From Coriobacteriia bacterium (GTDB taxonomy: Bacteria; Actinomycetota; Coriobacteriia; Anaerosomatales; JBAZZO01), in contig JBAZZO010000006.1 of assembly GCA_041658765.1 (NCBI GenBank), forward strand, positions 37,947-101,946: a DNA stretch of 64,000 bases, read 5' to 3'. Numbering within the stretch: position 1 is the first letter of the stretch; each line of letters opens with the position of its first letter. The position numbers and the translations under genes are program-made. This document shows positions 3,403-55,885 of the stretch, in pieces. The notes under the pieces were generated by a model. The model did not search any database, was not told the DNA's origin, and worked only from the letters and a program-made list of their open reading frames with translations.

Positions 3403-4302
3403 ATGGAAGACCGGCCCGACGCACGTACACTGGTGGCCGTCATCGTCGCGCTCGTCGTCTGGGCATCGGCGTTCCCCGGAGTGCGGGCCCTCGTCGACTC
3501 GCGGCACCCGATCTTCGGCCCCGGCCAGATGGCGCTCCTTCGCTTCCTCGTCGCCTCCGCCGCGTTCGCGGTCCTCGCCCTAGCGCGGCGCATGCGGCTC
3601 CCCGCGCTGCGTGACGTCCCGCGCATCGCGCTCGCGGCGCTCTGCGGCATCACCATCTACCACCTGGGGTTCACGTTCGGCGAGTCGACCGTGACGGCGG
3701 GTGCGGCGGCGCTGATCATCGCGTCGGGACCGATCTTCACCGCTCTGCTCTCCATCGTCTTCCTCGGTGAGCGGTTGAACGCCTGGGGATGGGGAGGCGT
3801 GCTGCTAGCCTTCTCCGGGGTGACGCTCATCGCTCTCGGTGAGGGCGGCGGGTTCTCCGTCGAGCGAGGCGCGCTCTTCGTGCTGATGGCGGCGATCGGC
3901 ACGGCGTTCTACTTCGTGCTGTCGAAGGGGCCGCTGAGGGTGTATGGCGCGCTGGAGTTCACGTCGTACGCGGTCTGGTTCGGGACCGTGCCGATGCTCT
4001 TCTTCCTGCCCGGGCTCGCCGCCCAGGTGAGCTCCGCGCCCTCCTGGGCGATCGCTACGATCGTCTACCTCGGCGTCTTCCCCGGGGCCGTCTCGTACGC
4101 TCTGTGGTCGTACGGCCTGGCGCGCATGCCCGCCACCAAGACCGCGAGTTTCCTTTACGCGCAGCCCGTGCTGGCGGCGTTCATCGCGTGGGTGTGGCTG
4201 CGAGAGGTCCCCGCGTGGCTGACGATCGCCGGCGGGGCGATCGCGCTGGCCGGGGTCGTCGTCGTCGGCACGAGAGGGAAAGCCGTCACGCGCAGGCCCT
4301 AG
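3403..4302 (+). CDS. EamA/DMT family transporter
   Basis: In-frame ATG at 3403 (MEDRPDARTLVAVIVALVVWASAFPG...). About 10 hydrophobic spans form two EamA-like halves. The upstream part of track ORF 3136-4302 overlaps the LysE gene and is Ser/Arg-rich. Confidence 0.7.
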   Translation: MEDRPDARTLVAVIVALVVWASAFPGVRALVDSRHPIFGPGQMALLRFLVASAAFAVLALARRMRLPALRDVPRIALAALCGITIYHLGFTFGESTVTAGAAALIIASGPIFTALLSIVFLGERLNAWGWGGVLLAFSGVTLIALGEGGGFSVERGALFVLMAAIGTAFYFVLSKGPLRVYGALEFTSYAVWFGTVPMLFFLPGLAAQVSSAPSWAIATIVYLGVFPGAVSYALWSYGLARMPATKTASFLYAQPVLAAFIAWVWLREVPAWLTIAGGAIALAGVVVVGTRGKAVTRRP

Positions 4303-16996: not shown

Positions 16997-17136
16997 CCTC
17001 GCGACGAGCCTGCGCCGAGCCGACGCTCCGTGCCGCCGGGTAGATTCTCCGGCAACGCCTCGGCCGCGTCCATCATCCACCAGGACCTGCTTGCCCGCGC
17101 TGTTTGCGGCCGGTGACTCCTGGTAATGTATCGTCC

Positions 17137-22614: not shown

Positions 22615-22707
22615 GGCGGGAATGATACCACCGTGACGCGCGCGGTGCGGGCGAGGGCGTGTGTCACAATGTAGGTGGCTTTCGAGCAGTGGGGAGGAGG
22701 GGATAGG

Positions 22708-35417: not shown

Positions 35418-36197
35418 ATGGCCTTCACCATCGCGCTTGCCGGCAAGGGCGGGACCGGCAAGACGACCATGGCGGCGCTGCTCGTGCGCGCCCTGCGCGA
35501 GCTGGGCGCGCGTTCCGTACTCGCGGTGGACGCCGACCCCAATGCGTGTCTTCACGAGGCGCTCGGGCTGGAGGTGGAGCGGTCCGTGGGCGACATAACC
35601 GAGGAGATGCTCCGGCTCGCCGACGACAACCGTCCGGGAGGCATGGACAAGGAGACGTGGCTCGAGCTCAACGTGAACCGCTACGTGGTCGAGTCGACCG
35701 AGTGCGACCTGCTCTCGATGGGCCGTCCCGAAGGCTCGGGATGCTACTGCTACGCGAACAATCTCGTGCGAGCATGCATGGACGACCTGTCGCGCAGTTA
35801 TGAGTACGTGATCATGGACAACGAAGCCGGTCTCGAGCACCTCTCGCGGCGGACCACGCGCAACGTCGACCTGCTGCTCCTCATCGCCGACCCGAGCGTG
35901 CGCGGCATCCGCACCGCCCGTACGCTCGACGAGCTCGCCGGCGAGCTCGGGATAGCCGTTGGCGCGCGCTACCTCGTCGTCGATCGCGCCCAAGAGCCGC
36001 TCGACCCCGTGCTCCTGGAGGCCGTCGCGGCCACTGGCATCCCTCTGCTCGGCACCGTCCCCAGCGATGACGGCGTGACCCGCTGTGATCTGCTCGGCAC
36101 GGGCCTGTTCGACCTGCCCGACGACTCTCCGTCGCTCGCCGCCGTCAAGGAGATGGTCACCCGTGCGGTGCCCGTCCTCTCCGGCGCGAGCGTCTGA
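35418..36197 (+). CDS. cooC: CODH/ACS nickel-insertion accessory ATPase (CooC/AcsF family), copy 1
   Basis: 259 aa. It has the deviant Walker [10 protein letters not shown] and the CxC metal motif GSGCYC. Confidence 0.85.
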
Positions 36198-38051: not shown

Positions 38052-38069
38052 CGCATCCGCAAGGAGAAG

Positions 38070-40025
38070 GTGAGCCCGATGTCCGACGAATCCACCGCCA
38101 CCGAGTCCGACGAATACAGCATCGATCCGACAACGGCCCAGATGCTCAAGATCGCCGACGACCTCGGGATAGAGACGGCGTTCTCGCGGTCGCGCTCCAT
38201 CAAGCCGTGCTCGACCGGTGCGACCGGGGGATGCTGCAAGCTGTGCGCGATGGGACCGTGTCGCCTCATCGGCAAGCACGAACGCGGCGTCTGCGGCGCC
38301 GATCGCGAGACGATCGCCGCGCGCAACTTCGTGCGGCAGGTCGCAGCAGGGGCCTCCGCGCACTCGGATCACGGTCGCGAAGTCGCTCTGGCACTGCGCG
38401 GGATCGCCACCGGAGAGATCGAGGGCGGCTCCATCGCCGACACCATCAAGCTGGCCAAGGTCGCCGGGTACATGGGTATCGACATCGCCGGCAAGGACGT
38501 GAGCCAGCTCGCGCTCGAAGTGGCCGACTGCGCCCTAGCGCAGTTCGGCCAGCAGACCGGCGAGCTGGTCTACATCGGTCGCGCACCGAAGAAGCGCCAG
38601 GACCTGTGGCGCAAGTACGGCGTGGTGCCGCGCGGCGTCGACCGCGAGGTGGTCGAGGCGATGCACCGCACGGCGGCCGGTACCGACCAGAACCACCTGA
38701 CCCTGCTCGACGGAGCCGTGAAGTGCGCGCTCGCGAGCGGCTGGGGCGGTTCGATGCTCGCCACCGACCTGCAGGACATCCTCTATGGGACCCCGCAGGC
38801 GTTGCGCTCCTCCGCCAACCTCGGCGTTCTCTCCGAGGAGAAGGTGAACATCCTCATCCACGGTCACGAGCCGCTGCTCGCCTCGATGATCATCGACGTC
38901 GCGCACGAAGCGGAGATGATCGCGCTGGCCGAGTCGGTGGGCGCCAAGGGCATCAACATCGCCGGCATCTGCTGCACCGCCAACGAGTCGCTCATGCGCA
39001 AGGGCGTCCCGCCCGCGGGCAACATGCTCCAGCAGGAGCTCGCAGTCCTGACGGGCGCCGTCGAAGCGATGGTCGTCGACGTGCAGTGCATCTTCCAGGG
39101 CCTGAACGAGGTCGCCTCGCACTTCCACACCAAGCTCATCTCCTCGAGTCCGAAGGCGCGCGTCGGCGACTCCGAGCACATCGTCGTCGACGAGCACAAG
39201 CCCATGGAGGCCGCGCGAGCCATCGTCCGCGCCGCGATCGAGAACTTCCCGAACCGCAAGGACACGCACATCCCTCACGTGTCCGAGCCGATAGTCGCCG
39301 GCTTCAGCCACGAGTACATCCGCTACATGCTCGGCGGCAAGATGCGCGCTTCGCTCACGCCGCTGAACGAGAACATCGTCAACGGCAGGATCCGCGGCGT
39401 GGCGGCGGTCGTGGGCTGCTCGAACCCGCGTGCCGTCCAGGACTACGCGGTCGTCAACGTGGTGCGCGAGCTCATCGCCAACAACGTGCTCGTCGTGGTG
39501 ACCGGCTGCGCCGCGATCACGAGCGGCAAGCATGGCCTGCTCACCCCCGAGACGATGGAGTTCGCGGGCGAGACGCTGCGGGAGGTCTGCGAGACCGTGG
39601 GCATCCCGCCGGTCCTGCACATGGGCTCGTGCGTCGACAACTCGCGCATCCTCACAGTCCTCGCCGACGTCGCGGCGACCGGGGGACTCGGCGACGACAT
39701 CGCGGGTCTGCCCGCGGTGGGGCTCTCGCCCGAATGGTTCTCGGAGAAGGCGCTCGAGATCGCCACATATGCCGTGGCCTCTGGGGTCCACGTCATCTTC
39801 GGCGGCGTGGGCTCTCCGGTCGCGAACAGTCCGATCGTCACCGAGTACATGATCTCGGGCTGGACCGAGCGCTACGGGGGCAGCCTTCGCTTCATCACCG
39901 AACCGCAGGACATGGTCGTCGCCACACTCGACCTCATCGACGCCGCGCGCAAAGCGCTCAAGATCGATGTGGCCGCCGAACGCGTCCTGTTCGACATGGA
40001 CATGAGGAGGGAACTCAGTGTCTAA
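38070..40025 (+). CDS. acsA: anaerobic carbon-monoxide dehydrogenase catalytic subunit
   Basis: 651 aa. The N-terminal Cys cluster is CSTGATGGCCKLCAMGPCR...GVCGA, and the CooS pattern continues throughout. ATG at 38079 is an alternative start. Confidence 0.95.
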   Translation: MSPMSDESTATESDEYSIDPTTAQMLKIADDLGIETAFSRSRSIKPCSTGATGGCCKLCAMGPCRLIGKHERGVCGADRETIAARNFVRQVAAGASAHSDHGREVALALRGIATGEIEGGSIADTIKLAKVAGYMGIDIAGKDVSQLALEVADCALAQFGQQTGELVYIGRAPKKRQDLWRKYGVVPRGVDREVVEAMHRTAAGTDQNHLTLLDGAVKCALASGWGGSMLATDLQDILYGTPQALRSSANLGVLSEEKVNILIHGHEPLLASMIIDVAHEAEMIALAESVGAKGINIAGICCTANESLMRKGVPPAGNMLQQELAVLTGAVEAMVVDVQCIFQGLNEVASHFHTKLISSSPKARVGDSEHIVVDEHKPMEAARAIVRAAIENFPNRKDTHIPHVSEPIVAGFSHEYIRYMLGGKMRASLTPLNENIVNGRIRGVAAVVGCSNPRAVQDYAVVNVVRELIANNVLVVVTGCAAITSGKHGLLTPETMEFAGETLREVCETVGIPPVLHMGSCVDNSRILTVLADVAATGGLGDDIAGLPAVGLSPEWFSEKALEIATYAVASGVHVIFGGVGSPVANSPIVTEYMISGWTERYGGSLRFITEPQDMVVATLDLIDAARKALKIDVAAERVLFDMDMRRELSV

Positions 40026-42201
40026 GATCATCGCCTCCGCCGCGATCCGCGGCGCTCACAGCATCGTCGGCAAGGCCGAGGCCACGCTCGCAAAGGTCAA
40101 GGAGGCGCACGGCGCCGAGCACGCTGTCGAGTTCCCCAACACCGCCTACTACCTCCCCGTCGTCTACGGTTTGACGGGCGAGAAGGTCGAGAAGCTCTCG
40201 GACATGGACCGCGTACTCGCCATCGCGCGCGACCTTCTTCCCGAGGCCCCCTCGGAGCACCTGTGGCTGCCCTACCTCGGAGGCACGCTCGACGCCGGCA
40301 TCGCCACGCTGCTGGCCGAGGAGTGCATCGAGGCCATGACCTACGTCACCGACGATCCGCCCCCGGTGACCGACCTGTGGCTCGGCGCCGCGGACGACGT
40401 CATCATGCGCGCCAAGGGCGTCGAGTTCGTCGACGGCTCGGCTCCCGGTTTCGCCGCCGTGGTCGGCGCCGCTCCCGACAACGCGACCGCGGTCAGACTC
40501 GCCCGGGAGATGCAGGAGAAGATGCTCTACGTCTTCATGGCCGGTCACGACGGCGGTGTCGCGTTCGGAGAGCAACTCGCCGCCGAGGACATCCAGCTCG
40601 GATGGGACTCCCGTCTCGTCCCGTTCGGCAAGGAGGTCTACAGCCAGATCTACTCCGTCGGCTTCGCCACCCGTGCCGCCATGGCGTTCGGCGGCGTCCA
40701 GCCGGGCGACTACGAGCGCATCCTGGCCTACAACAAGAGCCGCGTCTTCGCGTTCGTGCTCGCGCTCGGAGAGGTCACCGACGAGTGGTACGCGACCGCG
40801 GCCGGCGCCATCAGCTACGGCTTCCCGACCATAGCCACGAGCGACATCCCGCAGATCCTGCCCACCGGCGTGTGCACCTACGAGCACGTGGTGTCCAACA
40901 TCGGCTGCGACGAGCTCGTGCAGAAGGCCGTCGAGGTCCGCGGTCTGAAGATCAAGGTCATCGACATGCCCATCCCGGTGAGCTACGGTCCCGCGTTCGA
41001 GGGCGAGCGCGTGCGCCGCGAGGACACCCATGCCGAGGCCGGCGGCCAGAAGAGCACCGCCTTCGAACTTCTGCGCACCCGCGACGCTGCCGAGGTCACG
41101 GACGGCAGGATCGAGGTCATCGGGCCGGAGCTCGACGAACTCGAAGAGGGCGCGCTCGTCCCGCTCGGCATCGTCGTGGACGTGGCCGGCCGCAAGATGC
41201 AGTCCGACTTCGAGCCGGTCATCGAGCGCCAGTTTCACCACCTCATGAACTTCGCGGAGGGCGTTCTCCACATGGGGCAGCGCGACCTGATCTGGCTGCG
41301 CATCAGCAAGGCGGCGAAGGAGAAGGGTTTCCGGTTCCACCACCTCGGCGACCTCCTGCACGCCAAGCTGCTCGACGAGTTCGACGCCATCGTCGACAAG
41401 GTGCAGGTCACGATCTACACCGAGCAGGCCAAGGTCGACGAGATGATCGTCGAGGCGCGCGCGATCTACGACGTACGCGACGAGCGGATGGCGGGCCTCA
41501 ACGACGACACCGTCGACGTCTTCTACTCGTGCTCGCTGTGCCAGAGCTTCGCGCCCAACCATCTCTGCGTGGTGACGCCCGAGCGTCTCGGCCTGTGCGG
41601 CGCCTACAACTGGCTCGACGCCAAGGCGAGCAACGAACTCAAGCCCACCGGCCCCAACCAGCCCATCACGAAGGGCGCGCTCCTCGAGGAGCGCCTCGGT
41701 CAGTGGTCCGGGGTCAACGAGTTCATCTGGGAGAAGTCGGGCCGCACGATCGAGAGGATGAGCTGCTACTCCCTCATGACCGACCCGATGACGAGCTGCG
41801 GCTGCTTCATGTGCATCATCGCCCTCCTGCCGATGTGCAACGGCGTGATGATCGTGAACAGGGAGTTCGCCGGCATGACCCCGTCGGGCATGAAGTTCTC
41901 CACGCTCGCCGGCATGATCGGCGGCGGAGTGCAGGCGCCGGGCTTCATGGGCGTGGGCCGCGGATACCTTACGAGCCGCAAGCTCCTCTACGCCGAGGGC
42001 GGCCTGTCGCGCGTGGTCTGGATGCCCAAGGAGCTCAAGGAGACGATAGCGTCCTCTCTCAAGCCCCGCATGGAGGAGATGGGCGATCCCGGCTTCCTCG
42101 ACAAGATCTGTGACGAGACCATCGCCGAGACCGAGGACGCCGTGCTCGAGTTCCTCACGAGCGTGAACCACCCCGCCCTTTCCATGGACCCGCTCTTCTA
42201 G
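40018..42201 (+). CDS. acsB: acetyl-CoA synthase (ACS alpha subunit)
   Basis: 727 aa. FPNTAYYLPVVYG is present. The A-cluster Cys region is CSLCQSFAPNHLCVVTPERLGLCG...SCGCF. It overlaps acsA by 8 nt. Confidence 0.95.
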   Translation: MSKIIASAAIRGAHSIVGKAEATLAKVKEAHGAEHAVEFPNTAYYLPVVYGLTGEKVEKLSDMDRVLAIARDLLPEAPSEHLWLPYLGGTLDAGIATLLAEECIEAMTYVTDDPPPVTDLWLGAADDVIMRAKGVEFVDGSAPGFAAVVGAAPDNATAVRLAREMQEKMLYVFMAGHDGGVAFGEQLAAEDIQLGWDSRLVPFGKEVYSQIYSVGFATRAAMAFGGVQPGDYERILAYNKSRVFAFVLALGEVTDEWYATAAGAISYGFPTIATSDIPQILPTGVCTYEHVVSNIGCDELVQKAVEVRGLKIKVIDMPIPVSYGPAFEGERVRREDTHAEAGGQKSTAFELLRTRDAAEVTDGRIEVIGPELDELEEGALVPLGIVVDVAGRKMQSDFEPVIERQFHHLMNFAEGVLHMGQRDLIWLRISKAAKEKGFRFHHLGDLLHAKLLDEFDAIVDKVQVTIYTEQAKVDEMIVEARAIYDVRDERMAGLNDDTVDVFYSCSLCQSFAPNHLCVVTPERLGLCGAYNWLDAKASNELKPTGPNQPITKGALLEERLGQWSGVNEFIWEKSGRTIERMSCYSLMTDPMTSCGCFMCIIALLPMCNGVMIVNREFAGMTPSGMKFSTLAGMIGGGVQAPGFMGVGRGYLTSRKLLYAEGGLSRVVWMPKELKETIASSLKPRMEEMGDPGFLDKICDETIAETEDAVLEFLTSVNHPALSMDPLF

Positions 42202-42229
42202 GGCGCGAGCAGCAAAAGGAGTGAGCCGG

Positions 42230-43579
42230 ATGGCTCTCAGCGGCATCGAGATATTCAAACAGCTCCCCAAGACCAACTGCGGCGACTGCGGTGTTCCCAC
42301 CTGCCTGGCTTTCGCCATGAAGCTCGCGCAGGGCCAGGCTGAGCTCGCTGCGTGCCCCCACATCTCCGACGAGGCGAAGGCAGCCCTGGCCTCGGCGGCG
42401 GCGCCGCCCATGCGCGCCGTGACGGTGGGCAAGGGCGACGCGGCGTTCACCGTGGGCGAGGAGACCGTCGTCTTCCGGCACGATCGGACCTTCGTCAACC
42501 CGTGCGCGATCGGCGTGAGCGTCGACGCGAGTGCGGCCGACGAAGGGATCGACGCCGTGGTCGCACAGGCCGAAGCGGCGAGCTTCGAGCGCGTCCAGCA
42601 GCACCTGGCCTGCGGGTTCGTGGCCGTGCGCGGCGACGGCGATGCCGCCCGCTACAAGGCGGCCGTCGAGCGCGTGATGTCGAAGACGTCCCTGCCGCTC
42701 GTGCTGATGACCGAAGACGCCGCCGAGGCGGGGGCCGCTCTGGAATCCGCCGCCGCCGCCGGGCGCCCGCTCCTGTGTGCTGCGACCGCCGCGAACGCCG
42801 ACGCCATGATCGAGTTGGCCAAGCGGCACTCCTGCCCTCTCGTGGTCCGCGGCGACGGGCTGGCCGAAGTGGCCGCGCTCACCGCCAAGGCGAAAGCGGC
42901 CGGCGTCGAGGACCTCGTCATCGACAGCGCTCCGAAGACCGCCGGCGCTGCCCTGCGCGACGCGGTGTTCGCGCGCCGCTGCGCGCTCGTCAAGAAGTTC
43001 GCGGAGCTCGGCTATCCCACCATCTGCTTCCCCTGCGACCTCGCCGGCGGCGACGCCATGCTCGAGACGGCGTACGCCGCTGTGGATGTCGCCAAGTACG
43101 GCAGCATCATCGTCCTGTCGGGCGCGGAGCCGTGGCGGATGCTTCCCCTGCTGGTCCTGCGTCAGAACATCTTCACCGATCCGCAGCGCCCGATGCAGGC
43201 CGAGTCGAAGATCTACGCCATCAACGATCCCGGGCCGGAGGCACCCTTCCTCGTCACCACCAACTTCTCGCTCACGTACTTCATCGTCTCCTCGGAGATA
43301 GAGGGCGGGAGGATGCCGGCCTACCTCGGCATCGTCGATGCGGAGGGCCTGTCGGTCCTCACCGCGTGGGCGGCCGGCAAGTTCGTCCCGGAGCGGATAG
43401 CCAAGTTCGTCAAGGACACCGGCATCGCCGAGACGGTCTCGCATCGCGAGATCATCATCCCCGGCGCCGTCGCCCAGATCAGTGGCGAGCTCGCGGAGGA
43501 ACTTGACGGGTGGACCGTGACCGTGGGTCCCTACGAGGCGGCCGAGCTGCCGGCCTTCCTCAAGAGACGTGCCGGCTAA
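42230..43579 (+). CDS. acsC: corrinoid iron-sulfur protein large subunit (CODH/ACS gamma)
   Basis: The N-terminal 4Fe-4S motif is TNCGDCGVPTCLAFAMKL. ATG at 42230 follows AAAGGAG. The track start is 42221. Confidence 0.9.
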   Translation: MALSGIEIFKQLPKTNCGDCGVPTCLAFAMKLAQGQAELAACPHISDEAKAALASAAAPPMRAVTVGKGDAAFTVGEETVVFRHDRTFVNPCAIGVSVDASAADEGIDAVVAQAEAASFERVQQHLACGFVAVRGDGDAARYKAAVERVMSKTSLPLVLMTEDAAEAGAALESAAAAGRPLLCAATAANADAMIELAKRHSCPLVVRGDGLAEVAALTAKAKAAGVEDLVIDSAPKTAGAALRDAVFARRCALVKKFAELGYPTICFPCDLAGGDAMLETAYAAVDVAKYGSIIVLSGAEPWRMLPLLVLRQNIFTDPQRPMQAESKIYAINDPGPEAPFLVTTNFSLTYFIVSSEIEGGRMPAYLGIVDAEGLSVLTAWAAGKFVPERIAKFVKDTGIAETVSHREIIIPGAVAQISGELAEELDGWTVTVGPYEAAELPAFLKRRAG

Positions 43580-43600: not shown

Positions 43601-45601
43601 GTGGTCCTCATGGCGGCGCAGAAGACCGGTGGATCGCTCGACTGGTCTCCCATGCCGCCCACTGTCTTCGCGCCATGCCGCTCGAAGTGCCCGGCGCACG
43701 TCGACGTCCCGGGCTACATCACCGCGATCGCCGAAGGCCGGTTCACGGATGCGCTCGAGATCGTGCTCGAGCGCAACCCTCTTCCGAGCGTGTGCGGGCG
43801 TATCTGCCTGCGTCCTTGCGAGGAGGGCTGTAGGCGCTGTCTGCTCGACGAACCGGTCGCCATCGCCATGCTCAAGCGAGCGGCGGCCGATTTCGGCGCC
43901 TACCAGCACCCCAAGCCTCGGGCCCTGCGCAAGGAGTCGGTCGCGGTGGTGGGCTCAGGCCCCGCGGGCCTGACCGTCGCGCACGACCTGGCCGCCCAAG
44001 GCCTTCGCGTGACCATCATCGAAGCCAAGCCCAAGCTCGGAGGCATGCTCCGATACGGCATCCCCGAGTACCGCCTGCCCGGCAAGGCCCTCGACCGGGA
44101 CATCAGCCACATCCTCTCGCTGGGGGTGGAGGTGCGCACCGGCGTCAAGGTCGGAGCAGACGTGACGCTGGCGCGACTCGGCGAGGAGCACGACGCCGTC
44201 GTGGTGACCGCCGGTCTCCAGAGCAGCCGCGTCCTGGAGATCCCCGGCGCCCACCTGCCGCGGGTCCTGGCCGCGCTGCCGTTCCTGGAGGCGGCGGCGT
44301 GCGGAGAGAGGACCGGCATCGGGAAGCGCGTCGTCGTGGTGGGCGGCGGTAACGTGGCGATGGACGTGGCGCGCACGGCCCGACGGCTCGGCGCGGCGCA
44401 GGTCGATGTCGTCTGTCTCGAGAGCGCAGAGGAGATGCCCGCCTCGCGACAGGAGGTCGAGGAGGCGAGGCTCGAGGGCGTCGGGGTGCACTGTTCGTGG
44501 GGTCCGCGCGAGATCTTGGGCGAAGAGGATGTCTCCGCTCTCGACGTGGTCCGGTGCACGTCGGTCTTCGATGAGGACCGGCGGTTCTCGCCTGTGTTCG
44601 ACGAGAGCGAGACGCGTCGCTTCGAGGCCGACACCGTCATCTTCGCCACGGGGCAGGGCGCCGACATCGGCGATCTCGGCATCGAGACCACGCCGCGCGG
44701 AGGTGCGGTCATAGACCCGCAGACCATGAAGACGTCGATCGAAGGTGTCTACGCCGCCGGAGACGTGGTGACGGGCCCGACCAAGGTCATCGACGCCATC
44801 GCCGAAGGCCACCGGGTGGCCGCGTGCGTGATACGGGACCTGACCGGGGACACCGCGTTGCTCGACGGGCTCGACCAGGAGAGCGACACGCTGGGCGAGG
44901 TGCCCGAGAGCATGCGGTACAAGGTCGTGACCCGCAGGCGCGTCCAGATGGAGAGGCTCGAGTTCTACGAGGCCGTCGGCACTTTCGACGAGATCGAAGC
45001 AGGCTACACCGAATACGAGGCCGCCCGCGAGGCCCAGAGGTGCCTCGGCTGCACGACCGGCGCTCGGCTGGTGCGTGAGAAGTGCGCGTCGTGCCTCACC
45101 TGCGTGCGCGTGTGCCCCCACAACGCGCCCAACGTGAAGTACCGCGGCTATCTGATCTTCGACGCGGAGGCGTGCCACGCGTGCGGCGCCTGCGCGTCGC
45201 AGTGTCCGGCGCACGCCATCAACATCGAGGGCCACTCGGAAGAGGAGATGGATCGCCGCGTCGAGACGGTCCTGGCCGGCAGCGCCGGCGACGCGACCAT
45301 GCAGTTCGCCTGCGGGTGCACGCCTCTCCTCCCCGAGCTGGGCTTGAGCGACCCGCGGACCCTGACGGTCACATGTCTGCTCCGCGTGAGCGAGGCGACG
45401 GTGCTCCGCGCGCTCCAGCACGGAGCTGGACGAGTGGTCTTCACCGGTTGCGTCGAGGTCAACTGCCGCTATCCCTACGCGCGCGAACTGGTCGCGCGCC
45501 GGGAGGCCGACATCCGTGCGCTGCTCAGGCAGATGGGGATGGATGACGCCCTCATCGTCCCCGAGGCGACCGACGAGGACGAAGGAGTGCACCTGAGATG
45601 A
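43601..45601 (+). CDS. fusion protein: GltD/NfnB-like NAD(P)H flavin oxidoreductase + 2x[4Fe-4S] ferredoxin + MvhD-like domain
   Basis: The N-terminal Fe-S region reads CPAHVDVPGY...CGRICLRPCE. Two Rossmann motifs are seen (VAVVGSGPAGL, VVVVGGGNVAMD). CASCLTCVRVCP and CHACGACASQCP follow. The C-terminal ...VVFTGCVEVNCRYPY is MvhD/FlpD-like. ATG at 43610 is an alternative start. Confidence 0.8.
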   Translation: MVLMAAQKTGGSLDWSPMPPTVFAPCRSKCPAHVDVPGYITAIAEGRFTDALEIVLERNPLPSVCGRICLRPCEEGCRRCLLDEPVAIAMLKRAAADFGAYQHPKPRALRKESVAVVGSGPAGLTVAHDLAAQGLRVTIIEAKPKLGGMLRYGIPEYRLPGKALDRDISHILSLGVEVRTGVKVGADVTLARLGEEHDAVVVTAGLQSSRVLEIPGAHLPRVLAALPFLEAAACGERTGIGKRVVVVGGGNVAMDVARTARRLGAAQVDVVCLESAEEMPASRQEVEEARLEGVGVHCSWGPREILGEEDVSALDVVRCTSVFDEDRRFSPVFDESETRRFEADTVIFATGQGADIGDLGIETTPRGGAVIDPQTMKTSIEGVYAAGDVVTGPTKVIDAIAEGHRVAACVIRDLTGDTALLDGLDQESDTLGEVPESMRYKVVTRRRVQMERLEFYEAVGTFDEIEAGYTEYEAAREAQRCLGCTTGARLVREKCASCLTCVRVCPHNAPNVKYRGYLIFDAEACHACGACASQCPAHAINIEGHSEEEMDRRVETVLAGSAGDATMQFACGCTPLLPELGLSDPRTLTVTCLLRVSEATVLRALQHGAGRVVFTGCVEVNCRYPYARELVARREADIRALLRQMGMDDALIVPEATDEDEGVHLR

Positions 45602-46257
45602 TCGTGGTGCGCGCGAAACCTCTCGAGGAGGTCTTCGACATGGTCGTCGCTCACGAGCGAGTCCTTCTCGTGGGCTGCAACACGTGCGCCGCCGTCTCCT
45701 TGGCCGGCGGGGAGATGGAGGTCGCCACGCTCGTCGAGGCGCTCCGCTTGATGGCCGCGCGCCGCGGCCGCGCGATCGAGTTCACCGGCTCGGTCCTGCA
45801 GCGCCAGTGCGAGCCCGAGTTCCTCGAGGAGCTCGGGGACGAGGGGTACGACGCCGTGCTCTCGCTGGGGTGCGGCGCGGGCGTGGCCCTGCTCTCCGAC
45901 ACCACGAAGGTTCCGGTGTATCCGGCGCTCGACACCATGTTCATCGGCGCGGCCAAGGGATTCGCCTCGTGGCAGGCCGAGTGTTCGGCATGCGGCCAGT
46001 GCGTGCTCGGCCGCACCGCCGGCATCTGCCCGATCACGCGTTGCGCGAAGGGCATCATGAACGGCCCGTGCGGCGGCGTGAAGGACGGCCGCTGCGAGCT
46101 TGGCGACCGCGACTGCGCCTGGGTGCTCATCTACGAGCGTCTCGAGGCCCAAGGCCGCCTCGGCGAGTTCGGGCGGTTCGGCGAGGCGAAGGACCACTCC
46201 GTCCGCTCGAAGTGCGACGTGTGGGACATGAGCGACAAGGGGGGTGAGCCGAAGTGA
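45598..46257 (+). CDS. metV: methylene-THF reductase small subunit MetV (Cys-rich C-terminal-domain protein)
   Basis: 219 aa. CNTCAA...CSACGQCVLGRTAGICPITRCAKGIMNGPCGG is present. ATGA overlap upstream and GTGA overlap downstream. Confidence 0.85.
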   Translation: MIVVRAKPLEEVFDMVVAHERVLLVGCNTCAAVSLAGGEMEVATLVEALRLMAARRGRAIEFTGSVLQRQCEPEFLEELGDEGYDAVLSLGCGAGVALLSDTTKVPVYPALDTMFIGAAKGFASWQAECSACGQCVLGRTAGICPITRCAKGIMNGPCGGVKDGRCELGDRDCAWVLIYERLEAQGRLGEFGRFGEAKDHSVRSKCDVWDMSDKGGEPK

Positions 46258-47135
46258 CGTTGCGGGAAGCGCTGGAGTCCGGCGAGTTCGTCGTGACCTC
46301 CGAGGTCGGCCCGCCCAAGGGGACCGACATCTCGGAGATGCTCTCCGCCGCCGAGATGTTGCGCGGCCGCGTGCACGCGCTCAACGTCACCGACAACCAG
46401 GCGGCTGTCATGCGCCTGTGCACCTTGGCGGCCTGCGTCCATCTCAAGGAGCGCGGCTTCGATCCGGTGCTGCAGGTGACCTGTCGAGACCGCAACCGGC
46501 TAGCGATGCAGTCGGACCTTCTCGGCGCAGCCTCCTTCGGCATCACGAACGTGCTCGCGCTGACCGGCGATCACGTTGCTGTCGGGGATCATCCGCAGGC
46601 CAAGCCGGTCTTCGATCTCGAGTCCGTGCAGCTCCTGGAGGCGATCAGGGCGCTGCGGTCCGGTCACGACCTGGCCGGCAACGAGCTGCACGGCACGCCG
46701 GAGTTCTTCGCCGGCGCCGTCGTCACCCCTGACGCTCACCCGCTCGCGCCGCAGCTCGCCAAGTTCGAGAAGAAGGTGGCCGCCGGCGCGCGCTACTTCC
46801 AGACCCAGGCGGTCTACGACCCGGCGACGTTCCGCGGGTTCATGGAGTATGCGCACGGACTCGGCGCGAAGGTGCTCGCCGGCCTCGTCATCCTGCGCTC
46901 GGCGCGGATGGCACGCTTCATGACCAAGAACATCCCCGGCATCTCGGTGCCCCAGCCGCTCATCGACGAGCTCGATCGCGCGGAGGACCCCGTCGCCGTC
47001 GGCGTCGAGATAGCGGCCCGCTTCATCACTCAGACGCGCGATGTGTGCGACGGTGTCCACATGATGGCCGTGGGAGCCGAGCACCTCGTCCCCAGGGTGC
47101 TCGACGCGGCCGGGCTCGAAGGGGTGAGCACGTGA
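46254..47135 (+). CDS. metF: 5,10-methylenetetrahydrofolate reductase
   Basis: 293 aa. VTSEVGPPKG, ALNVTDNQ and the TIM-barrel MTHFR pattern are seen. Confidence 0.9.
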   Translation: MTLREALESGEFVVTSEVGPPKGTDISEMLSAAEMLRGRVHALNVTDNQAAVMRLCTLAACVHLKERGFDPVLQVTCRDRNRLAMQSDLLGAASFGITNVLALTGDHVAVGDHPQAKPVFDLESVQLLEAIRALRSGHDLAGNELHGTPEFFAGAVVTPDAHPLAPQLAKFEKKVAAGARYFQTQAVYDPATFRGFMEYAHGLGAKVLAGLVILRSARMARFMTKNIPGISVPQPLIDELDRAEDPVAVGVEIAARFITQTRDVCDGVHMMAVGAEHLVPRVLDAAGLEGVST

Positions 47136-47908
47136 AAGTAGCGGTCTCGGGCAAGGGCGGCGTCGGCAAGACCACACTCGCGGCGGGCCTCGCGCTGCTC
47201 TTCGCGGAGGCGGGCAGGCGGGTCATCGCCATCGATGCGGACCCCGACGCCAACCTCGCCATGGCCCTCGGCGCCACGCCCGAGGCCGCCGCGGCGTGCG
47301 TGCCGCTCGTCGAGGAGGACGAGCTCATCGAGGAGCGCACCGGCGCGGCCCCCGGCAGGGGCGGCATGTTCATCCTCGATCCCGACGTCTCCGACGTCGT
47401 CGAGCGCTGCGGCGTCACCTTCAACGGCGTGACCATGCTCAAGATGGGGACGGTGGAGCGCGGCGGTTCGGGATGCATGTGCTCGGAAGGCACCTTCCTC
47501 AAGGCGTTCATGCGCGATCTGCTCGTCGATCGTGACGATGTGGCCATCCTCGACATGGAGGCCGGCATCGAGCACCTCGGTCGCGGCACCGCCGAGGCGG
47601 TCGACGTGCTCATCGTGGTGATCGAGCCCGGCGGACGCTCGGTCCAGACGGCGCGCCAGGTCCGCGCGCTCGCGGCCGACATCGGCATCCGCGACGTCGT
47701 GGCGGTCGCGAACAAGGTCCGCGACGCCGACGATGCCGTGTTCGTGCGCGACGCGCTCGGCGACATCCCCCTGCTCGGCACGATGCCGCTGTGTGAGGGC
47801 GTCAGAGTCGCCGATCGCGAGGGGCGTCCTTCGTATCACGCCGACCCGGCCCTCGACGAAGCGCTGAGCGACATCGCGGGCGCGCTCGCGGCGCGGGTCG
47901 ACTGGTAG
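47132..47908 (+). CDS. cooC: CODH/ACS nickel-insertion accessory ATPase (CooC/AcsF family), copy 2
   Basis: GTG at 47132 overlaps the metF stop. SGKGGVGKTT and GSGCMC motifs are present. Confidence 0.85.
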   Translation: MKVAVSGKGGVGKTTLAAGLALLFAEAGRRVIAIDADPDANLAMALGATPEAAAACVPLVEEDELIEERTGAAPGRGGMFILDPDVSDVVERCGVTFNGVTMLKMGTVERGGSGCMCSEGTFLKAFMRDLLVDRDDVAILDMEAGIEHLGRGTAEAVDVLIVVIEPGGRSVQTARQVRALAADIGIRDVVAVANKVRDADDAVFVRDALGDIPLLGTMPLCEGVRVADREGRPSYHADPALDEALSDIAGALAARVDW

Positions 47909-47942: not shown

Positions 47943-48767
47943 ATGCTCGTCATCGGTGAGAAGGTCAACATCATGAGCAAGACCATCGGCCCTGCGATGC
48001 GTGAGCGCGACGAAGGGCCCGTGCGTGCCATGGCGCTCACCCAGGTGGAGGGCGGCGCCGACGTGCTCGACATCAACCTCGGCCCCGCCACCAGGGGCGG
48101 CCCCGAGATGATGGAGTGGGTCGTGAAGGTGGTGCAGGAAACGGTCCCCGAAACCCGTCTGTGTCTCGACACGATGAACCCCCAGGCGATGGAGGCGGGC
48201 CTGAGGGTCTGCAAGCTCCAGCCGATCATCAATTCGACGTCGGCCGAGCGTGCCCGTCTCGAGACGTACTTGCCGATGGCGAAGACCTACGAGGCCGAGA
48301 TCATCGGTCTGGCGATGACGGAGCACGGCGTCTCCCGCGACGCCAACGAGCGCATCGAGGCGGCCATGACGATCCTTGCCGCGATGATCGAGTTCGGCGT
48401 GCCGGCGGACCGCCTCTACCTCGACCCGCTCCTGCTCCCCGTGAGCGTGGCCCAGCAGCAGGCGCCCGAGGCGGCCGAGGCGATCGCCATGTTCGGTCAA
48501 CTCGACGAGCCGCCGCTGAAAACGACGGTCGGCCTCTCGAACATCTACAATGGCTGTCCGGAGCACGTGAAGTCGCCGCTGGCCGCGGCCCTGCTCGCGA
48601 TCATGATCCCCGCGGGCCTGACCTCGGCGATCATGGACCCCAACGACGAGCTCCAGATGATGGTCGCCCGCGCCGATCCGGCCGAACTCGAGCTGACCGA
48701 GTCGCTCGAGAAGTCGATGTCGGTGCTGCGGAACGAGACACTGTACTGCGACTCGTACCTGGACTAG
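47943..48767 (+). CDS. acsE: methyl-THF:corrinoid/iron-sulfur protein methyltransferase
   Basis: 274 aa with a pterin-binding barrel (IGEKVN..., DVLDINLGPA). Operon context supports the call. Confidence 0.9.
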   Translation: MLVIGEKVNIMSKTIGPAMRERDEGPVRAMALTQVEGGADVLDINLGPATRGGPEMMEWVVKVVQETVPETRLCLDTMNPQAMEAGLRVCKLQPIINSTSAERARLETYLPMAKTYEAEIIGLAMTEHGVSRDANERIEAAMTILAAMIEFGVPADRLYLDPLLLPVSVAQQQAPEAAEAIAMFGQLDEPPLKTTVGLSNIYNGCPEHVKSPLAAALLAIMIPAGLTSAIMDPNDELQMMVARADPAELELTESLEKSMSVLRNETLYCDSYLD

Positions 48768-48788: not shown

Positions 48789-49292
48789 ATGGGTGAGTGC
48801 ACCTGCGCGACGGGGCGCGACGAGGGTTTCGACCCCGCGCTGCTCGATGCTGTGCTGGCGGAGCACGCCTCGACGGCCGACGCTCTCATCCCCCTGCTGC
48901 AGGCGACCCAGCGTGCGTACGGCTACCTGCCCGAGGACGCCATGCGGCGCATCGCCGTCGCGCTCGGCCGGCCGCTGTCGGCCGTCCTCGGAGTCGCGAC
49001 GTTCTACGCGCAGTTCCACCTCACGCCGCGCGGCCGGCGGATCGTGCGGGTGTGCCACGGCACCGCGTGTCACGTGAAGGGCGCGCTCGAGGTCACCGAG
49101 GCGCTCGTCGACGAGCTAGGTGTCGCCGTCGGCCGGACCGCCGACGACAGGAGCGTGACGCTCGAGTCCGTGGCGTGCGTGGGTTGCTGCGGCCTCGGCC
49201 CGATCGTCCTCGTCGACGACGAGCCGCACGGCGGTCTCGACGCCAAGAGCACGCGCAAGCTCGCCAAGAGCATCAAGCGGGGGAGGGACTGA
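48789..49292 (+). CDS. NuoE/HydC/FdsG-like [2Fe-2S] subunit
   Basis: 167 aa. The thioredoxin-like 2Fe-2S motif is VCHGTACHVKG...CVGCCGLGP. Confidence 0.85.
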   Translation: MGECTCATGRDEGFDPALLDAVLAEHASTADALIPLLQATQRAYGYLPEDAMRRIAVALGRPLSAVLGVATFYAQFHLTPRGRRIVRVCHGTACHVKGALEVTEALVDELGVAVGRTADDRSVTLESVACVGCCGLGPIVLVDDEPHGGLDAKSTRKLAKSIKRGRD

Positions 49293-51142: not shown

Positions 51143-51583
51143 ATGAAGGTCCGCGACATCATGACCCCGAGGGTGGTGTCCTGTCCGCCTTCGGCGACCG
51201 TCGCAGAGGCCGCGCGAGTGATGCGGGACGAGCGGGTCGGCTCGATCCTGGTCGTCGACGAGAAGGGCGTGCTCGTCGGGTTGCTCACCGACCGGCAGAT
51301 CACGCACGCCGTGGTGGCCGACGGGCTCGACCCCAAGACGGTCGCCGTCGACGAGTTCATGTTCACCGATTTCGTTCCTCTCGAGCCGGACATGGACCTG
51401 CTCACCGCCGTACGCCTGCAGAAGGAGCTCGCGATGCGCCGCCTCCCGGTGCTCGAGAACGGCGTGCCGGTGGGCATCATGTCGGTCTCCGACATCGCGG
51501 CGTTCGTGAAGGAGTGCATCGACGCGGTCCTCGTCGAGGGCGAGGTCCGCGTGCTCAGGCGCGCGGGCCGGAGCCACGGCTAG
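51143..51583 (+). CDS. CBS-pair domain protein
   Basis: 146 aa. It has two CBS motifs (VRDIMTPRVV..., GIMSVSDIA). Confidence 0.8.
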   Translation: MKVRDIMTPRVVSCPPSATVAEAARVMRDERVGSILVVDEKGVLVGLLTDRQITHAVVADGLDPKTVAVDEFMFTDFVPLEPDMDLLTAVRLQKELAMRRLPVLENGVPVGIMSVSDIAAFVKECIDAVLVEGEVRVLRRAGRSHG

Positions 51584-51601: not shown

Positions 51602-54319
51602 GTGAGCAAGCGGGTCGAGGAGAGGACGCTCGCGTTGACCGTCGACGGTCGCGCCGTCGGAGCGCGAGAAGGTTCGACGGTGCTCGAGGCGTGCTGCGAG
51701 GCGGGCGTCCACATCCCCACGCTCTGTCACGACCCGCGTCTCGCGCCCTTCGGCGCCTGCCGCCTGTGCGTGGTCGAGATCGAGGGCATGCGCGGCTACC
51801 CGACCTCGTGCACCACGATGGCCGCCGACGGCATGGTCGTCGCCACCGACACCGAGCGGTTGCGCCAGATGCGCACGACCATCATCGAGCTGCTCCTCTC
51901 CGACCACGACGTGGACTGTCTCACCTGCGAATCCAACGCCGCCTGCGGCTTGCAGGACCTCGCCTACGAGCTCGGTATCGAACACGAGCGCTACGGCGGC
52001 GACAGGCACGGCCCGCCCGCGCTCGGCGACGACCCGCTGATCGCCCGCGACTACTCCAAGTGCATCAGCTGCGGACGCTGCGTGCGCATCTGCGCCGAGG
52101 TGCAGGGATGCAGCGTCTACGGCTGGCAGGGTCGCGGTTTCGACTCGCTTCCCATGACGCCGTACGAGCTGCCGTTGGGCGAGTCGGGCTGCGAGTACTG
52201 CGGCCAGTGCGTCTCCACCTGCCCGGTGGGCGCGCTCACCGACCGCATCTCGCGCTTCGCCGGCCGCCCGTGGGAGACCGGGAAGGTGCGCACGATCTGC
52301 GGCTACTGCGGCGTGGGCTGCACCGTCGAGTACCGCGTGCGCGAAGGCCGCATCGTGGGTGCGAGCGCTCCGGTCGGCGTGGGCGTCAACGGCGGGAACC
52401 TCTGCGCGAAGGGGCGTTACGGTTGGAGCTTCGTCCACCACCCCGACCGCCTCACCGTGCCGCTCGTGCGCAAGGGCGGCGAGCTGGTCTCCTCGACGTG
52501 GGAGGAGGCCATCGGGCTCGTCGCGGCCGGTCTCGCCAAGGCGCGCGACGCCCACGGCCCGGACGCGGTAGGCGGCCTCGCGAGCGCCAAGTGCTCCAAC
52601 GAGGAGAACTACCTCTTCCAGAAGCTGCTGCGCGCGGGTATCGGCACGCATAACGTCGACCACTGCGCCCGCCTTTGACACAGCTCCACGGTGGCCGGTC
52701 TGGCCGCCACCTTCGGGAGCGGGGCGATGACGAACTCGATCGGCGATCTCGGCGAGGCCGACGTCATGCTCGTCGTCGGCTCCAACACCACCGAGGCGCA
52801 CCCGATCATCGGTATCGAGCTCAAGCGCGCCGCCGCGCGCGGGACGCGCATCGTCGTGATCGACCCGCGGCGCATCGCGCTCGTCGATCACGCCCGGAGT
52901 TGGCTGCGAATCCGCCCGGGCACGAACGTCGCGCTCTTCAACGCGATGGCGAAGGTCATCGTCGAAGAGGGTCTCGCCGACTCCGTCTTCATCGAGGCGC
53001 GCACCGAGGGTTTCGACGAGTTCGCGGCGCATGTCGCCTCCGTCGACCTCGACGAGGCGGCCGCGCTCACGAGCATCGGCGCAGACGCCATCCGCGAGGT
53101 CTCCCGCGCCTACGCGAACGCCGAGCGCAGCTCGATCGTCTACTGCATGGGCGTCACACAGCACACGTCGGGCACCGCGCAGGTGCGCGCTCTCGCCAAC
53201 CTCGCGCTGCTCTGTGGCCACATCGGCAAGCCCGGCACCGGCGTGAACCCGTTGCGCGGCCAGAGCAACGTGCAGGGCGCGTGCGACCTCGCGTGCCTGC
53301 CGAACTGCCTGCCGGGCTACCAGCCGCTCACCGATAAGAACGCGCTCGACCGCGTCTGCGACCTCTGGGAGAGCGAGCGCGAGCTGTCGACCGAGGCGGG
53401 ACTCACCGTGGTCGAGATGATCGACGCCGCCGCGCGCGGCGAGCTCAAGGCGCTCTACGTCATGGGAGAGAACCCGGTGCTCTCCGACCCCGACCAGGCG
53501 CACGTGGTCGAGGCGCTGGAGAACCTCGACTTCCTCGTGGTGCAGGACATCTTCCTCACGGAGACCGGCAGGCTCGCCGACGTCGTGCTCCCCGCCGCTA
53601 CGTTCCTCGAGAAGGACGGCACCTACACCAACACCGAGCGCCGCGTCCAGCTGGGACGGAAGGTCGTCGATCCGCCGGGCGAGGCGAAGACCGACTTCGA
53701 GATCGTCACGCTCGTCGCGAACGCGATGGGACTCGCGTGGGGCGAGGAGAGCCCCGAGGACGTGATGACCGAGATGGCCGCCGTCACCCCGCAGTACGGC
53801 GGCATCACCCATCGCCGCCTCGAGGAGGATGGCGGCCTGCAGTGGCCGTGCCCCGACGTCTCGCACCCCGGCACCCCGGTGCTCTACGCCGACGGCTTCC
53901 CGCGCGGCCGCGCCGCATTCGCCGTCGTCGACGACGAGCCGCCCGCCGAGCTGCCCGACGCACAGTTCCCGCTGGTGCTCTCGACGGGACGCCACCTGTG
54001 GAACTTCCACACCAACACGATGACGGGCCGCAGCGCCGGGCTCGCCGATCTCAACGCCGGGGGCTACGTGGAGATATCGCCCGAGGACGCCGAGTCGTTG
54101 TGCCTGTGCGAAGGGGACCGGGCCGAGGTGACGAGCAGGCGCGGCGCGTGCGTAGCGAGCGTGCGGATCGCTGTCGGGCTCGAGCCCGGCGTGGTGTTCA
54201 TGCCGTTCCATTTCGCCGACGCGCCGGCCAACCGCCTCACCAGCGGGGCCGTTCTCGACCCGATCTCGAAGATGCCCGGTCTCAAGACCACGCCGGTGCG
54301 GGTCTCGCGCGTCGAGTGA
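51602..54319 (+). CDS. fdhA: formate dehydrogenase alpha subunit, selenocysteine-containing (TGA 52676-52678 read as Sec), with NuoG-like N-terminal Fe-S domains
   Basis: Track ORFs 51602-52678 and 52691-54319 are in the same frame. The junction reads [30 protein letters not shown], the Sec/Cys-His active-site motif of Mo/W formate dehydrogenases. The N-terminus has 2Fe-2S plus 4Fe-4S motifs. Confidence 0.85.
52690..52711 (+). promoter_or_regulatory. SECIS-like hairpin downstream of the UGA
   Basis: GGUGGC-CGGUCUGGCC-GCCACC has a 6-bp outer stem starting 11 nt after the UGA. The inner part contains GGUC, as in bacterial SECIS apical regions. Folded by eye only. Confidence 0.55.
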
Positions 54320-54344: not shown

Positions 54345-54770
54345 TCACTTGTCGCCCTCGGTGCGCCTGGACCGCCACTCTTCCATGAAACCGCTTGGGG
54401 ATACCACGAGCACGCCTTCGCGAGCGCCAGTCGGGAAGTGCGCGAGGTTGCCGGTCACCAGGTAGTCCGCATGGCTGGCCAGCGCGATCTCCAGGAACGG
54501 TTCGTCGTCCGGGTCCGGCAGTCGTGTCGAGAGCGATGAGGCGGCGAAGACGTCACCGCGGAAGTCGATGTAGTCCAGTAGGGCGGCGACCGCGTCCGGA
54601 TCGAATGCGAACCTGGGTCGTAGCAGCACGGTTTCGTATTCCGCAAGGACTCTGGCATCGAGGCACAGGGTCACGGCCCCTGACGACACCATGCGGACGA
54701 TCTCTCCGGGAGGTCCGAAGGGTGACAGAAGACCCGAGACGAGCACGTTCGTGTCGAGGACGATCCTCAC
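54345..54770 (-). CDS. PIN-domain toxin (VapC-like)
   Basis: 141 aa. MRIVLDTNVLVSGLL... and acidic residues are at PIN positions. 4-nt overlap with the upstream antitoxin gene. Confidence 0.8.
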   Translation of the reverse strand: MRIVLDTNVLVSGLLSPFGPPGEIVRMVSSGAVTLCLDARVLAEYETVLLRPRFAFDPDAVAALLDYIDFRGDVFAASSLSTRLPDPDDEPFLEIALASHADYLVTGNLAHFPTGAREGVLVVSPSGFMEEWRSRRTEGDK

Positions 54771-55054
54771 CGCTTGCGCGCTTGCCGAACCGCGGCGATC
54801 TCAGCGCTGATGTCGCTCGTCGACAGCTCGTCCATGCCAGTGGAAGTAGCGCGCCGCTGGAGAGAGGCGACCGCGTCCACGGCTCGGGCCTGTCGGAACG
54901 CGGCGAGGGACTCCTCGAGGTTCGACTCGCTGACGGCGGCGAGGATGGCGACGGGGCGACCGTTGCTGGTGATGACCATCTCACGCTCATCGGGCAGATC
55001 ACGCCAGACCTCGGCGGACTTGCCACGCAGATCGCGAACGCTGACGAATCTCAT
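54767..55054 (-). CDS. type II antitoxin (Phd/YefM-like) partner of the PIN toxin
   Basis: ATG at 55054 follows GGAGG. MRFVSVRDLRGKSAEVWRDL...VITSNGRPVAIL is the Phd/YefM-type N-terminus. Confidence 0.7.
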   Translation of the reverse strand: MRFVSVRDLRGKSAEVWRDLPDEREMVITSNGRPVAILAAVSESNLEESLAAFRQARAVDAVASLQRRATSTGMDELSTSDISAEIAAVRQARKR

Positions 55055-55079
55055 GGCGTACCTCCAATCGTGACCCAAG

Positions 55080-55089
55080 TGTGTACACA
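55080..55089. promoter_or_regulatory. perfect 10-bp palindrome TGTGTACACA upstream of the antitoxin gene (candidate operator)
   Basis: Read from the sequence, 26 nt upstream of the antitoxin start. Type II TA operons are commonly autoregulated through palindromes. Confidence 0.3.
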
Positions 55090-55292
55090 AACGTCACACA
55101 CGTCAAGGGCACGATACGCAAACAGGGAGTCCGCGTCAGACACAGTGAGCGGCTCGAGGATCAGCCGCTCGGTGGTGATTCCCGATGACAGCACGGCAGA
55201 CGTTCCTTTCAACGGCTAGCGATTTCCCGTGCGTCTAGCGATTCCCACTTCAGTACCCTCATCTTCGAGGTAGCGGATCGGGTCACGCGCCG

Positions 55293-55580
55293 TCAGCTTG
55301 CTGCTGCGAATCTTTCCACCGGCTCCGATGGCCGGCTCCGCGCCAGGTCGTACGCGGTCTGCAGGTTGATCCAGAACTCCGGCGTGGTCTCGAGCGCCTG
55401 CGACAGCAGCCATGCGGTCTCGGGAGTCACGCCTCGCTTGCCGCGGACCAGCTCGTTCACGCGCTGCACCGGCACACCAAGATGCGCGGCGAAGGCCACC
55501 TGAGAGATGCCGAGCGGGATGAGGAACTCCTGGCTCAGGATGACGCCGGGGTGCGTGGGGATGCGGTTCTCGGGAATCAC
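55293..55580 (-). CDS. higA: HigA-type antitoxin (XRE helix-turn-helix)
   Basis: GTG at 55580 follows AGGAGG. IPTHPGVILSQEFLIPLGISQVAFAAHLGVPVQRVNELVRGKRGVT is present. Confidence 0.85.
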   Translation of the reverse strand: MIPENRIPTHPGVILSQEFLIPLGISQVAFAAHLGVPVQRVNELVRGKRGVTPETAWLLSQALETTPEFWINLQTAYDLARSRPSEPVERFAAAS

Positions 55581-55594
55581 TTGCGAGCCTCCTC

Positions 55595-55885
55595 TCAGTG
55601 GTAGTCCATCAATCGGACCTTGTGGGCATGATCGCCCTCCCAGCGGAACACGAGTCGCCACTGGTCGTTGACGCGGATCGAGTGGGATCCCTTGAGGTCG
55701 CCCTTCAACACCTCGAGGCGGTTCCCGGGCGGCGAACGCAAGTCCAGCAGCGCCGCCGCCCCGTTGAGAACATCCAGCTTCACGAGAGCAACCGCTGCTA
55801 CCTCGCGCGGGAATCGCTGAGCGCGGTTGGTCGGACGTCCGTGATACAGGTCCTCCGTCGCACCATCACCGAACGAGACGATCAC
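55595..55885 (-). CDS. higB: HigB-type toxin (RelE/ParE superfamily, plasmid-maintenance killer)
   Basis: 96 aa. ...LEVLKGDLKGSHSIRVNDQWRLVFRWEGD.A..V.L.DYH is the HigB signature. GTG start follows an RBS. Confidence 0.85.
   Translation of the reverse strand: MIVSFGDGATEDLYHGRPTNRAQRFPREVAAVALVKLDVLNGAAALLDLRSPPGNRLEVLKGDLKGSHSIRVNDQWRLVFRWEGDHAHKVRLMDYH

Follow-up and report, generated by a model that had tools for sequence, protein, structure and literature searches.

The 64,000-nucleotide stretch of Coriobacteriia bacterium DNA analysed here (hereafter, the window) contains fdhA, a formate dehydrogenase gene at positions 51602-54319 that is interrupted by an in-frame UGA codon apparently read as selenocysteine (Sec). 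We estimate a probability of about 93% that this region is one gene encoding a Sec-containing formate dehydrogenase/CO2 reductase alpha subunit with a molybdenum- or tungsten-bis(pyranopterin guanine dinucleotide) cofactor; this estimate draws on the reading frame, protein family, homologues, and a hairpin downstream of the UGA.

Translation of 51602-54319 yields 906 codons in a single frame, with the TGA at 52676-52678 as the sole internal stop. The two open reading frames (ORFs) that a preliminary description of this DNA had joined across this TGA (51602-52678 and 52691-54319) do share a frame and are parted only by that codon, and a Shine-Dalgarno-like sequence (GAGGGAG) lies 6 nt upstream of the GTG start at 51602. 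As the same description anticipated for automated annotation, the public gene call splits the gene, giving a 358-aa product (51602-52678) and a 530-aa product (P0010) that begins at ATG 52727. TGA is the commonest ordinary stop on the contig, terminating 22 of the 38 called genes; recoding of the fdhA TGA would therefore be local, without a change of genetic code, and we ruled out genome-wide reassignment of UGA.

For profile scans, the internal stop was replaced by Cys. The joined product matched TIGR01591 (the NCBIfam equivalog for formate dehydrogenase alpha) at 810 bits, against a cut-off of 666.25, and the match covered profile positions 1-672 of 672. Pfam analysis identified the domain order Fer2_4, NADH-G_4Fe-4S_3, Fer4_Nqo3, Molybdop_Fe4S4, Molybdopterin, and Molydop_binding; PF04879, PF00384, and PF01568 each scored above cut-off, and this set of domains spans the TGA. 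The best PDB matches were 9wxb_B and Rhodobacter capsulatus FdsA (6tg9_A), both FdsA-type alpha subunits of NAD-dependent formate dehydrogenases and both full length with E-values of about 1e-216 to 1e-222. The earlier identification of the joined product as a molybdopterin formate dehydrogenase is borne out by these results, and we conclude on sequence evidence that 51602-54319 is one formate dehydrogenase alpha subunit gene.

The preliminary description also placed the TGA at the catalytic Sec/Cys position, ahead of a conserved His, and suggested aligning the joined 905-aa product to FdhF and FdsA; in that alignment, the TGA column is indeed the Sec/Cys column and the His follows it. In alignments to solved structures, the residue of 6tg9_A opposite the TGA is the Cys of "CARVCHS", the molybdenum ligand of that enzyme. 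Within Escherichia coli K-12 fdhF, the in-frame TGA is codon 140, and pairwise alignment puts the window TGA in the same column with the adjacent His shared; residues U140, H141, and R333 of the E. coli protein occupy the columns of U359, H360, and R552 in the window protein, the catalytic Arg common to both lying in the motif NP[LV]RGQxNVQG. The proteins differ in other respects, as they are 38.6% identical over 677 aligned residues, and E. coli FdhF, which is part of the formate-hydrogenlyase complex, lacks the ~225-residue NuoG-like iron-sulfur (Fe-S) N-terminus of the window FdhA; unlike the window fdhA, the E. coli gene has no adjoining NuoE/F-like genes.

Alternatively, translation could terminate at the UGA and start separately at GTG 52691 or ATG 52727 to give a two-polypeptide enzyme. 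Gene calls of the Prodigal type yield just such 358-aa and 530-aa products, and GGGAG lies 7 nt upstream of ATG 52727; however, these letters fall within the codons of the universally conserved FGSGAM and are also present in Cys-type homologues with a single ORF. Such an enzyme would lack its metal-ligand residue; if translation restarted at ATG 52727, the His would be missing too, along with a further 16 conserved residues. No homologue has a gap or a second start at the junction, and the covarying hairpin described below would be left without a role. We therefore regard two polypeptides as extremely unlikely.

We compared the active-site codon across a homologue set made up of 80 related loci (from a scan with one genome per species), the window, and one metagenome contig. 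Among 92 homologous active-site codons, 55 are TGA and 37 are TGC or TGT; in the fetched loci, the TGA is retained at 54 homologous sites. TGA is found in eight of the nine closest Actinomycetota genomes (the exception, L007, has TGC), including the nearest genome, "Coriobacteriia bacterium E21_maxbin.048," at 75% identity; identity to the other eight is 59-66%. An independent assembly from another sample and sequencing run (L001), whose protein shows 89% aa identity, shares the TGA at this codon; the 41 nt following its TGA are identical to those of the window although synonymous divergence (dS) is about 0.3. In the comparison with L001, the ratio of nonsynonymous to synonymous divergence (dN/dS) is 0.24 before the TGA and 0.21 after it; with L002, the corresponding values are 0.37 and 0.23, so purifying selection on the second part of fdhA is no weaker than on the first. 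The comparison with L068 was partial, with few aligned codons (probably owing to frame breaks in that metagenome-assembled genome [MAG]), and was not used.

These comparisons bear on the possibility that a Cys codon (TGC or TGT) was mutated or mis-sequenced to TGA and that fdhA is broken. A single substitution suffices to turn TGC into TGA, and Cys occupies the Sec position in P0001-P0009, the full-length database proteins nearest to the window product (62-67% identity); however, the TGA recurs in the independent assembly and in most of the nearest Actinomycetota genomes, purifying selection is equally strong on both sides of it, and a Sec-specific GGUCU hairpin is present, all of which make a pseudogene or sequencing error exceedingly improbable. 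Given TGA in most close Actinomycetota genomes and Cys in the nearest database proteins, Sec/Cys exchange, which is known for FdhA (PMC1794560), evidently occurs within the clade, and the Cys orthologues of the actinobacterial clade (L007 and P0001-P0009) look like products of recent exchange. The operon setting of the L007 gene (TGC at position 11075) is unchanged; its loop codons read GGT CTC after drift, and the stem no longer pairs. On a Dehalococcoidia contig (L040), two Sec-type fdhA paralogues are separated by 10 kb (positions 4099 and 14090), each with a GGUCU hairpin.

Comparative analysis places a conserved, covarying hairpin of the selenocysteine insertion sequence (SECIS) type downstream of the UGA, and SelB is predicted to bind it. 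Numbering the U of the UGA as nt 1, the first paired base of the stem is nt 16; in the window sequence, where a seventh pair, 52690:52708, is possible, it is nt 15. This placement agrees with the spacing of roughly 11-12 nt from the UGA that is expected of a bacterial SECIS. The loop sequence GGUCU occupies nt 22-26 in 55 of 55 TGA-type genes versus 3 of 37 Cys-type genes, which spell the same Gly-Leu by other codons (GGC CTG, GGG TTG, GGA TTA, and others); E. coli fdhF likewise has GGUCU at nt 22-26. Across the TGA-type genes, the helix formed by nt 16-21 and nt 27-32 is paired in 98.8% of alignment cells, compared with 18-62% in slid-register controls and only 64% for the same columns in Cys-type genes. 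Compensatory changes occur at three of the six stem pairs, most visibly at pair 18:30 (GC 36, CG 7, UA 5, AU 3, GU 3) and also at pair 21:27 (CG 47, AU 4, UA 2, UG 1), and none of 500 shuffles matched the observed values. RNAalifold independently predicted the helix 16-21:27-32.

The preliminary description had proposed a SECIS hairpin within the string GGTGGCCGGTCTGGCCGCCACC at 52690-52711, beginning 11 nt past the TGA. The string is located there, and both the existence of a hairpin and its suitable distance hold up, whereas the register was off by a few bases. The proposed stem, GGUGGC/GCCACC with a 10-nt loop (nt 15-20 with nt 31-36), is feasible in the window sequence alone; across the 55 Sec-type homologues it is paired in 66.7% of cells, its own -3 slide reaches 90%, and we rejected this register.

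Several results weigh against reading the UGA as Sec. The codons of the stem and loop also encode a conserved peptide, V-A-G-L, and their conservation is thus partly at the protein level; V-A-G-L is encoded by other codons in Cys-type genes, which counters a purely protein-level account. Folding of the region, a check put forward in the preliminary description, did not favor the hairpin, as the energy of the single-sequence fold of the 60 nt after the UGA was indistinguishable from that of shuffled sequences (z = -0.64). This outcome is expected because of the high G+C content of the window (69%); folding energy being uninformative, support for the hairpin was drawn from covariation and comparison. 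The third group of results concerns the decoding machinery: ARAGORN identified no tRNA genes, tRNA-Sec included, in the 64-kb window, Pfam scans identified no selA, selB, or selD among the approximately 40 window ORFs, and gene tables covering 10 kb beyond each window end list no sel genes (the window corresponds to positions 82799-18800, reversed, of contig k141_463059 in ENA record ERZ27247322, which is 120,759 bp long). An Rfam scan of the whole window at gathering thresholds gave no match, hence no library support for the hairpin, and ARAGORN found no tRNA-Sec at the loci of the closest relatives. The sole loci with a tRNA-SeC (anticodon UCA) belong to two distant relatives, an unclassified bacterium MAG (L037, 10698-10792) and a Margulisiibacteriota single-amplified genome (L057, 5680-5774); in both, it lies about 0.5-2 kb downstream of a Sec-type fdhA.

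A rhodanese ORF and a "thioredoxin" ORF on the same contig, upstream of the window, form one frame joined by a TGA (L085 4787-4789; junction FYEFFTGW-U-PSCKKM), and this rhodanese-thioredoxin fusion is probably a second selenoprotein of the organism. Its TGA aligns to the first Cys of the thioredoxin WCGPC (WCxxC) motif, and a hairpin, GCCUGU-GGUCG-ACAGGC, lies 24-40 nt downstream of the TGA. In two metagenome relatives with 56-57% identity (L088, position 472; L089, position 299), the TGA is conserved and the hairpin is identical; more distant homologues have Cys at the TGA position. The known bacterial selenoprotein families include thioredoxin (PMC1794560). Because two independent conserved UGA sites occur on one contig, the organism very likely decodes Sec.

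We also scanned coding potential around every TGA in the window; apart from 52676, the only sites to emerge were 6896, 18433, and 18895, all of them ordinary gene ends. These three TGA codons, all on the + strand, lie between an HlyIII gene and the next ORF, between CNNM-CorC and PspC genes, and between PspC and LiaF-like genes, respectively, with high same-frame coding potential on both sides. We rejected them as Sec codons, as their peptide contexts have no Cys/Sec-type motif and they look like stops between same-frame neighbours.

A different decoding of the fdhA UGA would be its recoding to Cys by a selC*-type tRNA-Cys(UCA) together with a SelB-like factor, a mechanism proposed for some bacteria; tRNAs of this type and copies of SelB* are documented (PMC5389517). 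However, selB* is reported from two deltaproteobacterial orders, Syntrophobacterales and Desulfobacterales (PMC5389517), and nothing presented in that work links the system to the lineage studied here. The window loop, GGUCU, is moreover identical to that of E. coli fdhF mRNA and is also present in Neomoorella (L013), and we consider insertion of Cys at the UGA very unlikely. The crystal structure of Moorella SelB with mRNA reportedly contains an RNA with the same GGUCU loop.

The E. coli and Moorella systems are among the closest known counterparts of the window gene. In E. coli fdhF, the UGA is likewise followed by a hairpin carrying this loop sequence; however, the predicted E. coli fold has a 4-nt loop and an unpaired U, whereas the window has a regular stem of 6-7 bp and a 5-nt loop. 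The FdhA of Neomoorella carbonis (L013) is 50-52% identical to that of the window. Its N-terminal Fe-S domain is likewise fused, its fdhA directly follows NuoE- and NuoF-like genes, its TGA is at the same codon, and its hairpin, GUUGCC-GGUCU-GGCAAC, is in the same register; we take this hairpin to be the RNA crystallised with Moorella SelB. In Moorella thermoacetica, FdhA/FdhB is an NADP-dependent tungsten- and selenium-containing formate dehydrogenase that serves the Wood-Ljungdahl pathway. The Moorella/Neomoorella group differs from our organism in belonging to another phylum, and the window fdhA differs in closing a contiguous acs-met-fdh cluster and in having a CBS gene before it.

Based on Pfam scans and the gene table, fdhA closes a cluster of co-directional genes on the + strand (31757-54319) for the whole Wood-Ljungdahl pathway. 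The order acsB-acsC-hdrA-metV-metF-cooC-acsE-nuoE-nuoF-(CBS)-fdhA is kept in six uncultured Actinomycetota/Coriobacteriia (L002, L003, L007, L008, L009, and L068), and the CBS gene is at the same place in L002, L004, L005, L007, L008, and L068. Adjacency of nuoE, nuoF, and fdhA was found in 12 of 12 relatives, comprising nine Actinomycetota (L002-L009 and L068) and three others: a Thermoanaerobacteraceae MAG (L010), Desulfofundulus (L011), and Neomoorella (L013). The features are listed in Table 1.

Table 1. Features of the Sec-type fdhA gene, its product, and neighbouring genes (window positions unless a residue range or another locus is given)
Feature	Position	Strand	Remarks
fdhA	51602..54319	+	905-residue formate dehydrogenase alpha subunit; GTG start, TGA stop, one internal UGA predicted to be read through
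In-frame UGA, putative Sec codon, residue 359, then His360	52676..52678	+	column match to U140 of E. coli FdhF and Cys of 6tg9_A "CARVCHS"
SECIS core (predicted)	52691..52707	+	6-bp stem 52691-52696/52702-52707, pentaloop GGUCU 52697-52701
Arg552 codon, counterpart of catalytic Arg333 of E. coli FdhH	53255..53257	+	within NPLRGQSNVQG; alignment
FdhA NuoG-like Fe-S region	residues 8-213
FdhA Molybdop_Fe4S4	residues 228-280
FdhA Molybdopterin	residues 283-706
FdhA Molydop_binding	residues 791-898
fhs	31757-33451	+	
RACo	ends 35417	+	
cooC	35418-36197	+	
folD	up to 37093	+	
acsD	up to 38051	+	
acsA (carbon monoxide dehydrogenase, CODH)	38052-40025	+	
acsB	40006-42201	+	
acsC	42167-43579	+	
hdrA/mvhD-like	43610-45601	+	
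metV	45598-46257	+	
metF	46254-47135	+	
second cooC-like gene	47132-47908	+	
acsE	47943-48767	+	
NuoE/HydC-like [2Fe-2S] subunit gene, probable FdhA partner	48789-49292	+	Pfam 2Fe-2S_thioredx
NuoF/HydB-like flavoprotein gene, 602 aa	49292-51100	+	Pfam matches, synteny
Small CBS-pair protein gene, between NuoF-like gene and fdhA	51143-51583	+	Pfam CBS
PIN-domain (VapC-like) toxin	54345-54770	-	
Phd/YefM-like antitoxin	54767-55090	-	
HTH (HigA-like) antitoxin	55293-55661	-	
HigB-like toxin	55595-55885	-	
Rhodanese-thioredoxin fusion, membrane-anchored	L085 4310-5029	+	same contig, about 4.9 kb upstream of window position 1

We propose the following mechanism. During translation, the UGA at 52676-52678 would be read as Sec, with a SelB-type elongation factor carrying Sec-tRNA(Sec) binding the hairpin at 52691-52707 and delivering Sec to the ribosome. 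In the enzyme, Sec359 would be the ligand of the molybdenum or tungsten, beside His360 and Arg552. FdhA and the products of the NuoE-like and NuoF-like genes a short way upstream probably make up a complex, in which the latter two may pass FdhA electrons from one or more donors. This complex would make formate from CO2 and so supply the methyl branch of the Wood-Ljungdahl pathway, whose genes belong to the same cluster.

The full-length structural matches, R. capsulatus FdsGBA (6tg9) and the 9wxb enzyme, share the domain order of the window FdhA, and FdsG and FdsB are the NuoE- and NuoF-like partner subunits of FdsA. Both FdsA (6tg9) and 9wxb have an active-site Cys where the window FdhA has a Sec codon, and they also differ in the flavoprotein: the domains of the window NuoF-like protein are an N-terminal 2Fe-2S domain, Complex1_51K, SLBB, NADH_4Fe-4S, and a C-terminal ferredoxin-type 4Fe-4S domain, of which the first and last are extra. 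These additional Fe-S domains, typical of the Hyl group, would fit an electron-bifurcating type of enzyme. HylABC-FdhF2 of Gottschalkia (Clostridium) acidurici is electron-bifurcating and combines a Sec-type catalytic subunit with HydB/HydC-like (NuoF/NuoE-like) subunits; however, HylA is a separate NuoG-like Fe-S subunit, whereas the corresponding region is fused to FdhA in the window, and bifurcation here is a possibility only. That the FdhA(Sec)-NuoF-NuoE-CBS module is a selenium-dependent, flavin-based bifurcating CO2 reductase specific to Actinomycetota bearing the Wood-Ljungdahl pathway is a speculative idea that we think rather unlikely; if it were true, autotrophy or acetogenesis in this uncultured lineage would be selenium-dependent.

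FdhA is the most widespread bacterial selenoprotein family, with 1276 proteins in 822 organisms (PMC5029168; also PMC1794560). The window fdhA is an ordinary addition to this best-known family, and its SECIS element is of the textbook type. Selenocysteine is without mention in the literature that we examined on the actinobacterial Wood-Ljungdahl pathway. The main value of the finding lies in correct annotation, as the public call splits the enzyme and drops active-site residues; a split call could lead pathway reconstructions to conclude that this actinobacterial lineage lacks the initial methyl-branch step of the Wood-Ljungdahl pathway or has it in broken form, and surveys of genomes in which gene callers make such splits may have scored formate dehydrogenase wrongly. 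A further implication is that the organism requires selenium and carries Sec-decoding machinery somewhere in its genome.

Two toxin-antitoxin pairs, one joining the VapC-like toxin with the Phd/YefM-like antitoxin and the other the HigB-like toxin with the HigA-like antitoxin, occupy the opposite strand directly downstream of fdhA (54345-55885). The L084 assembly, which represents the same strain in another sample, is interrupted immediately ahead of these genes. Elsewhere in the window, a large HEAT-repeat gene adjoins an HD-domain (HD_5) gene twice, at 13695-17218 (- strand) and at 22675-26300 (+ strand); the two arrangements are about 5 kb apart and in opposite orientations.

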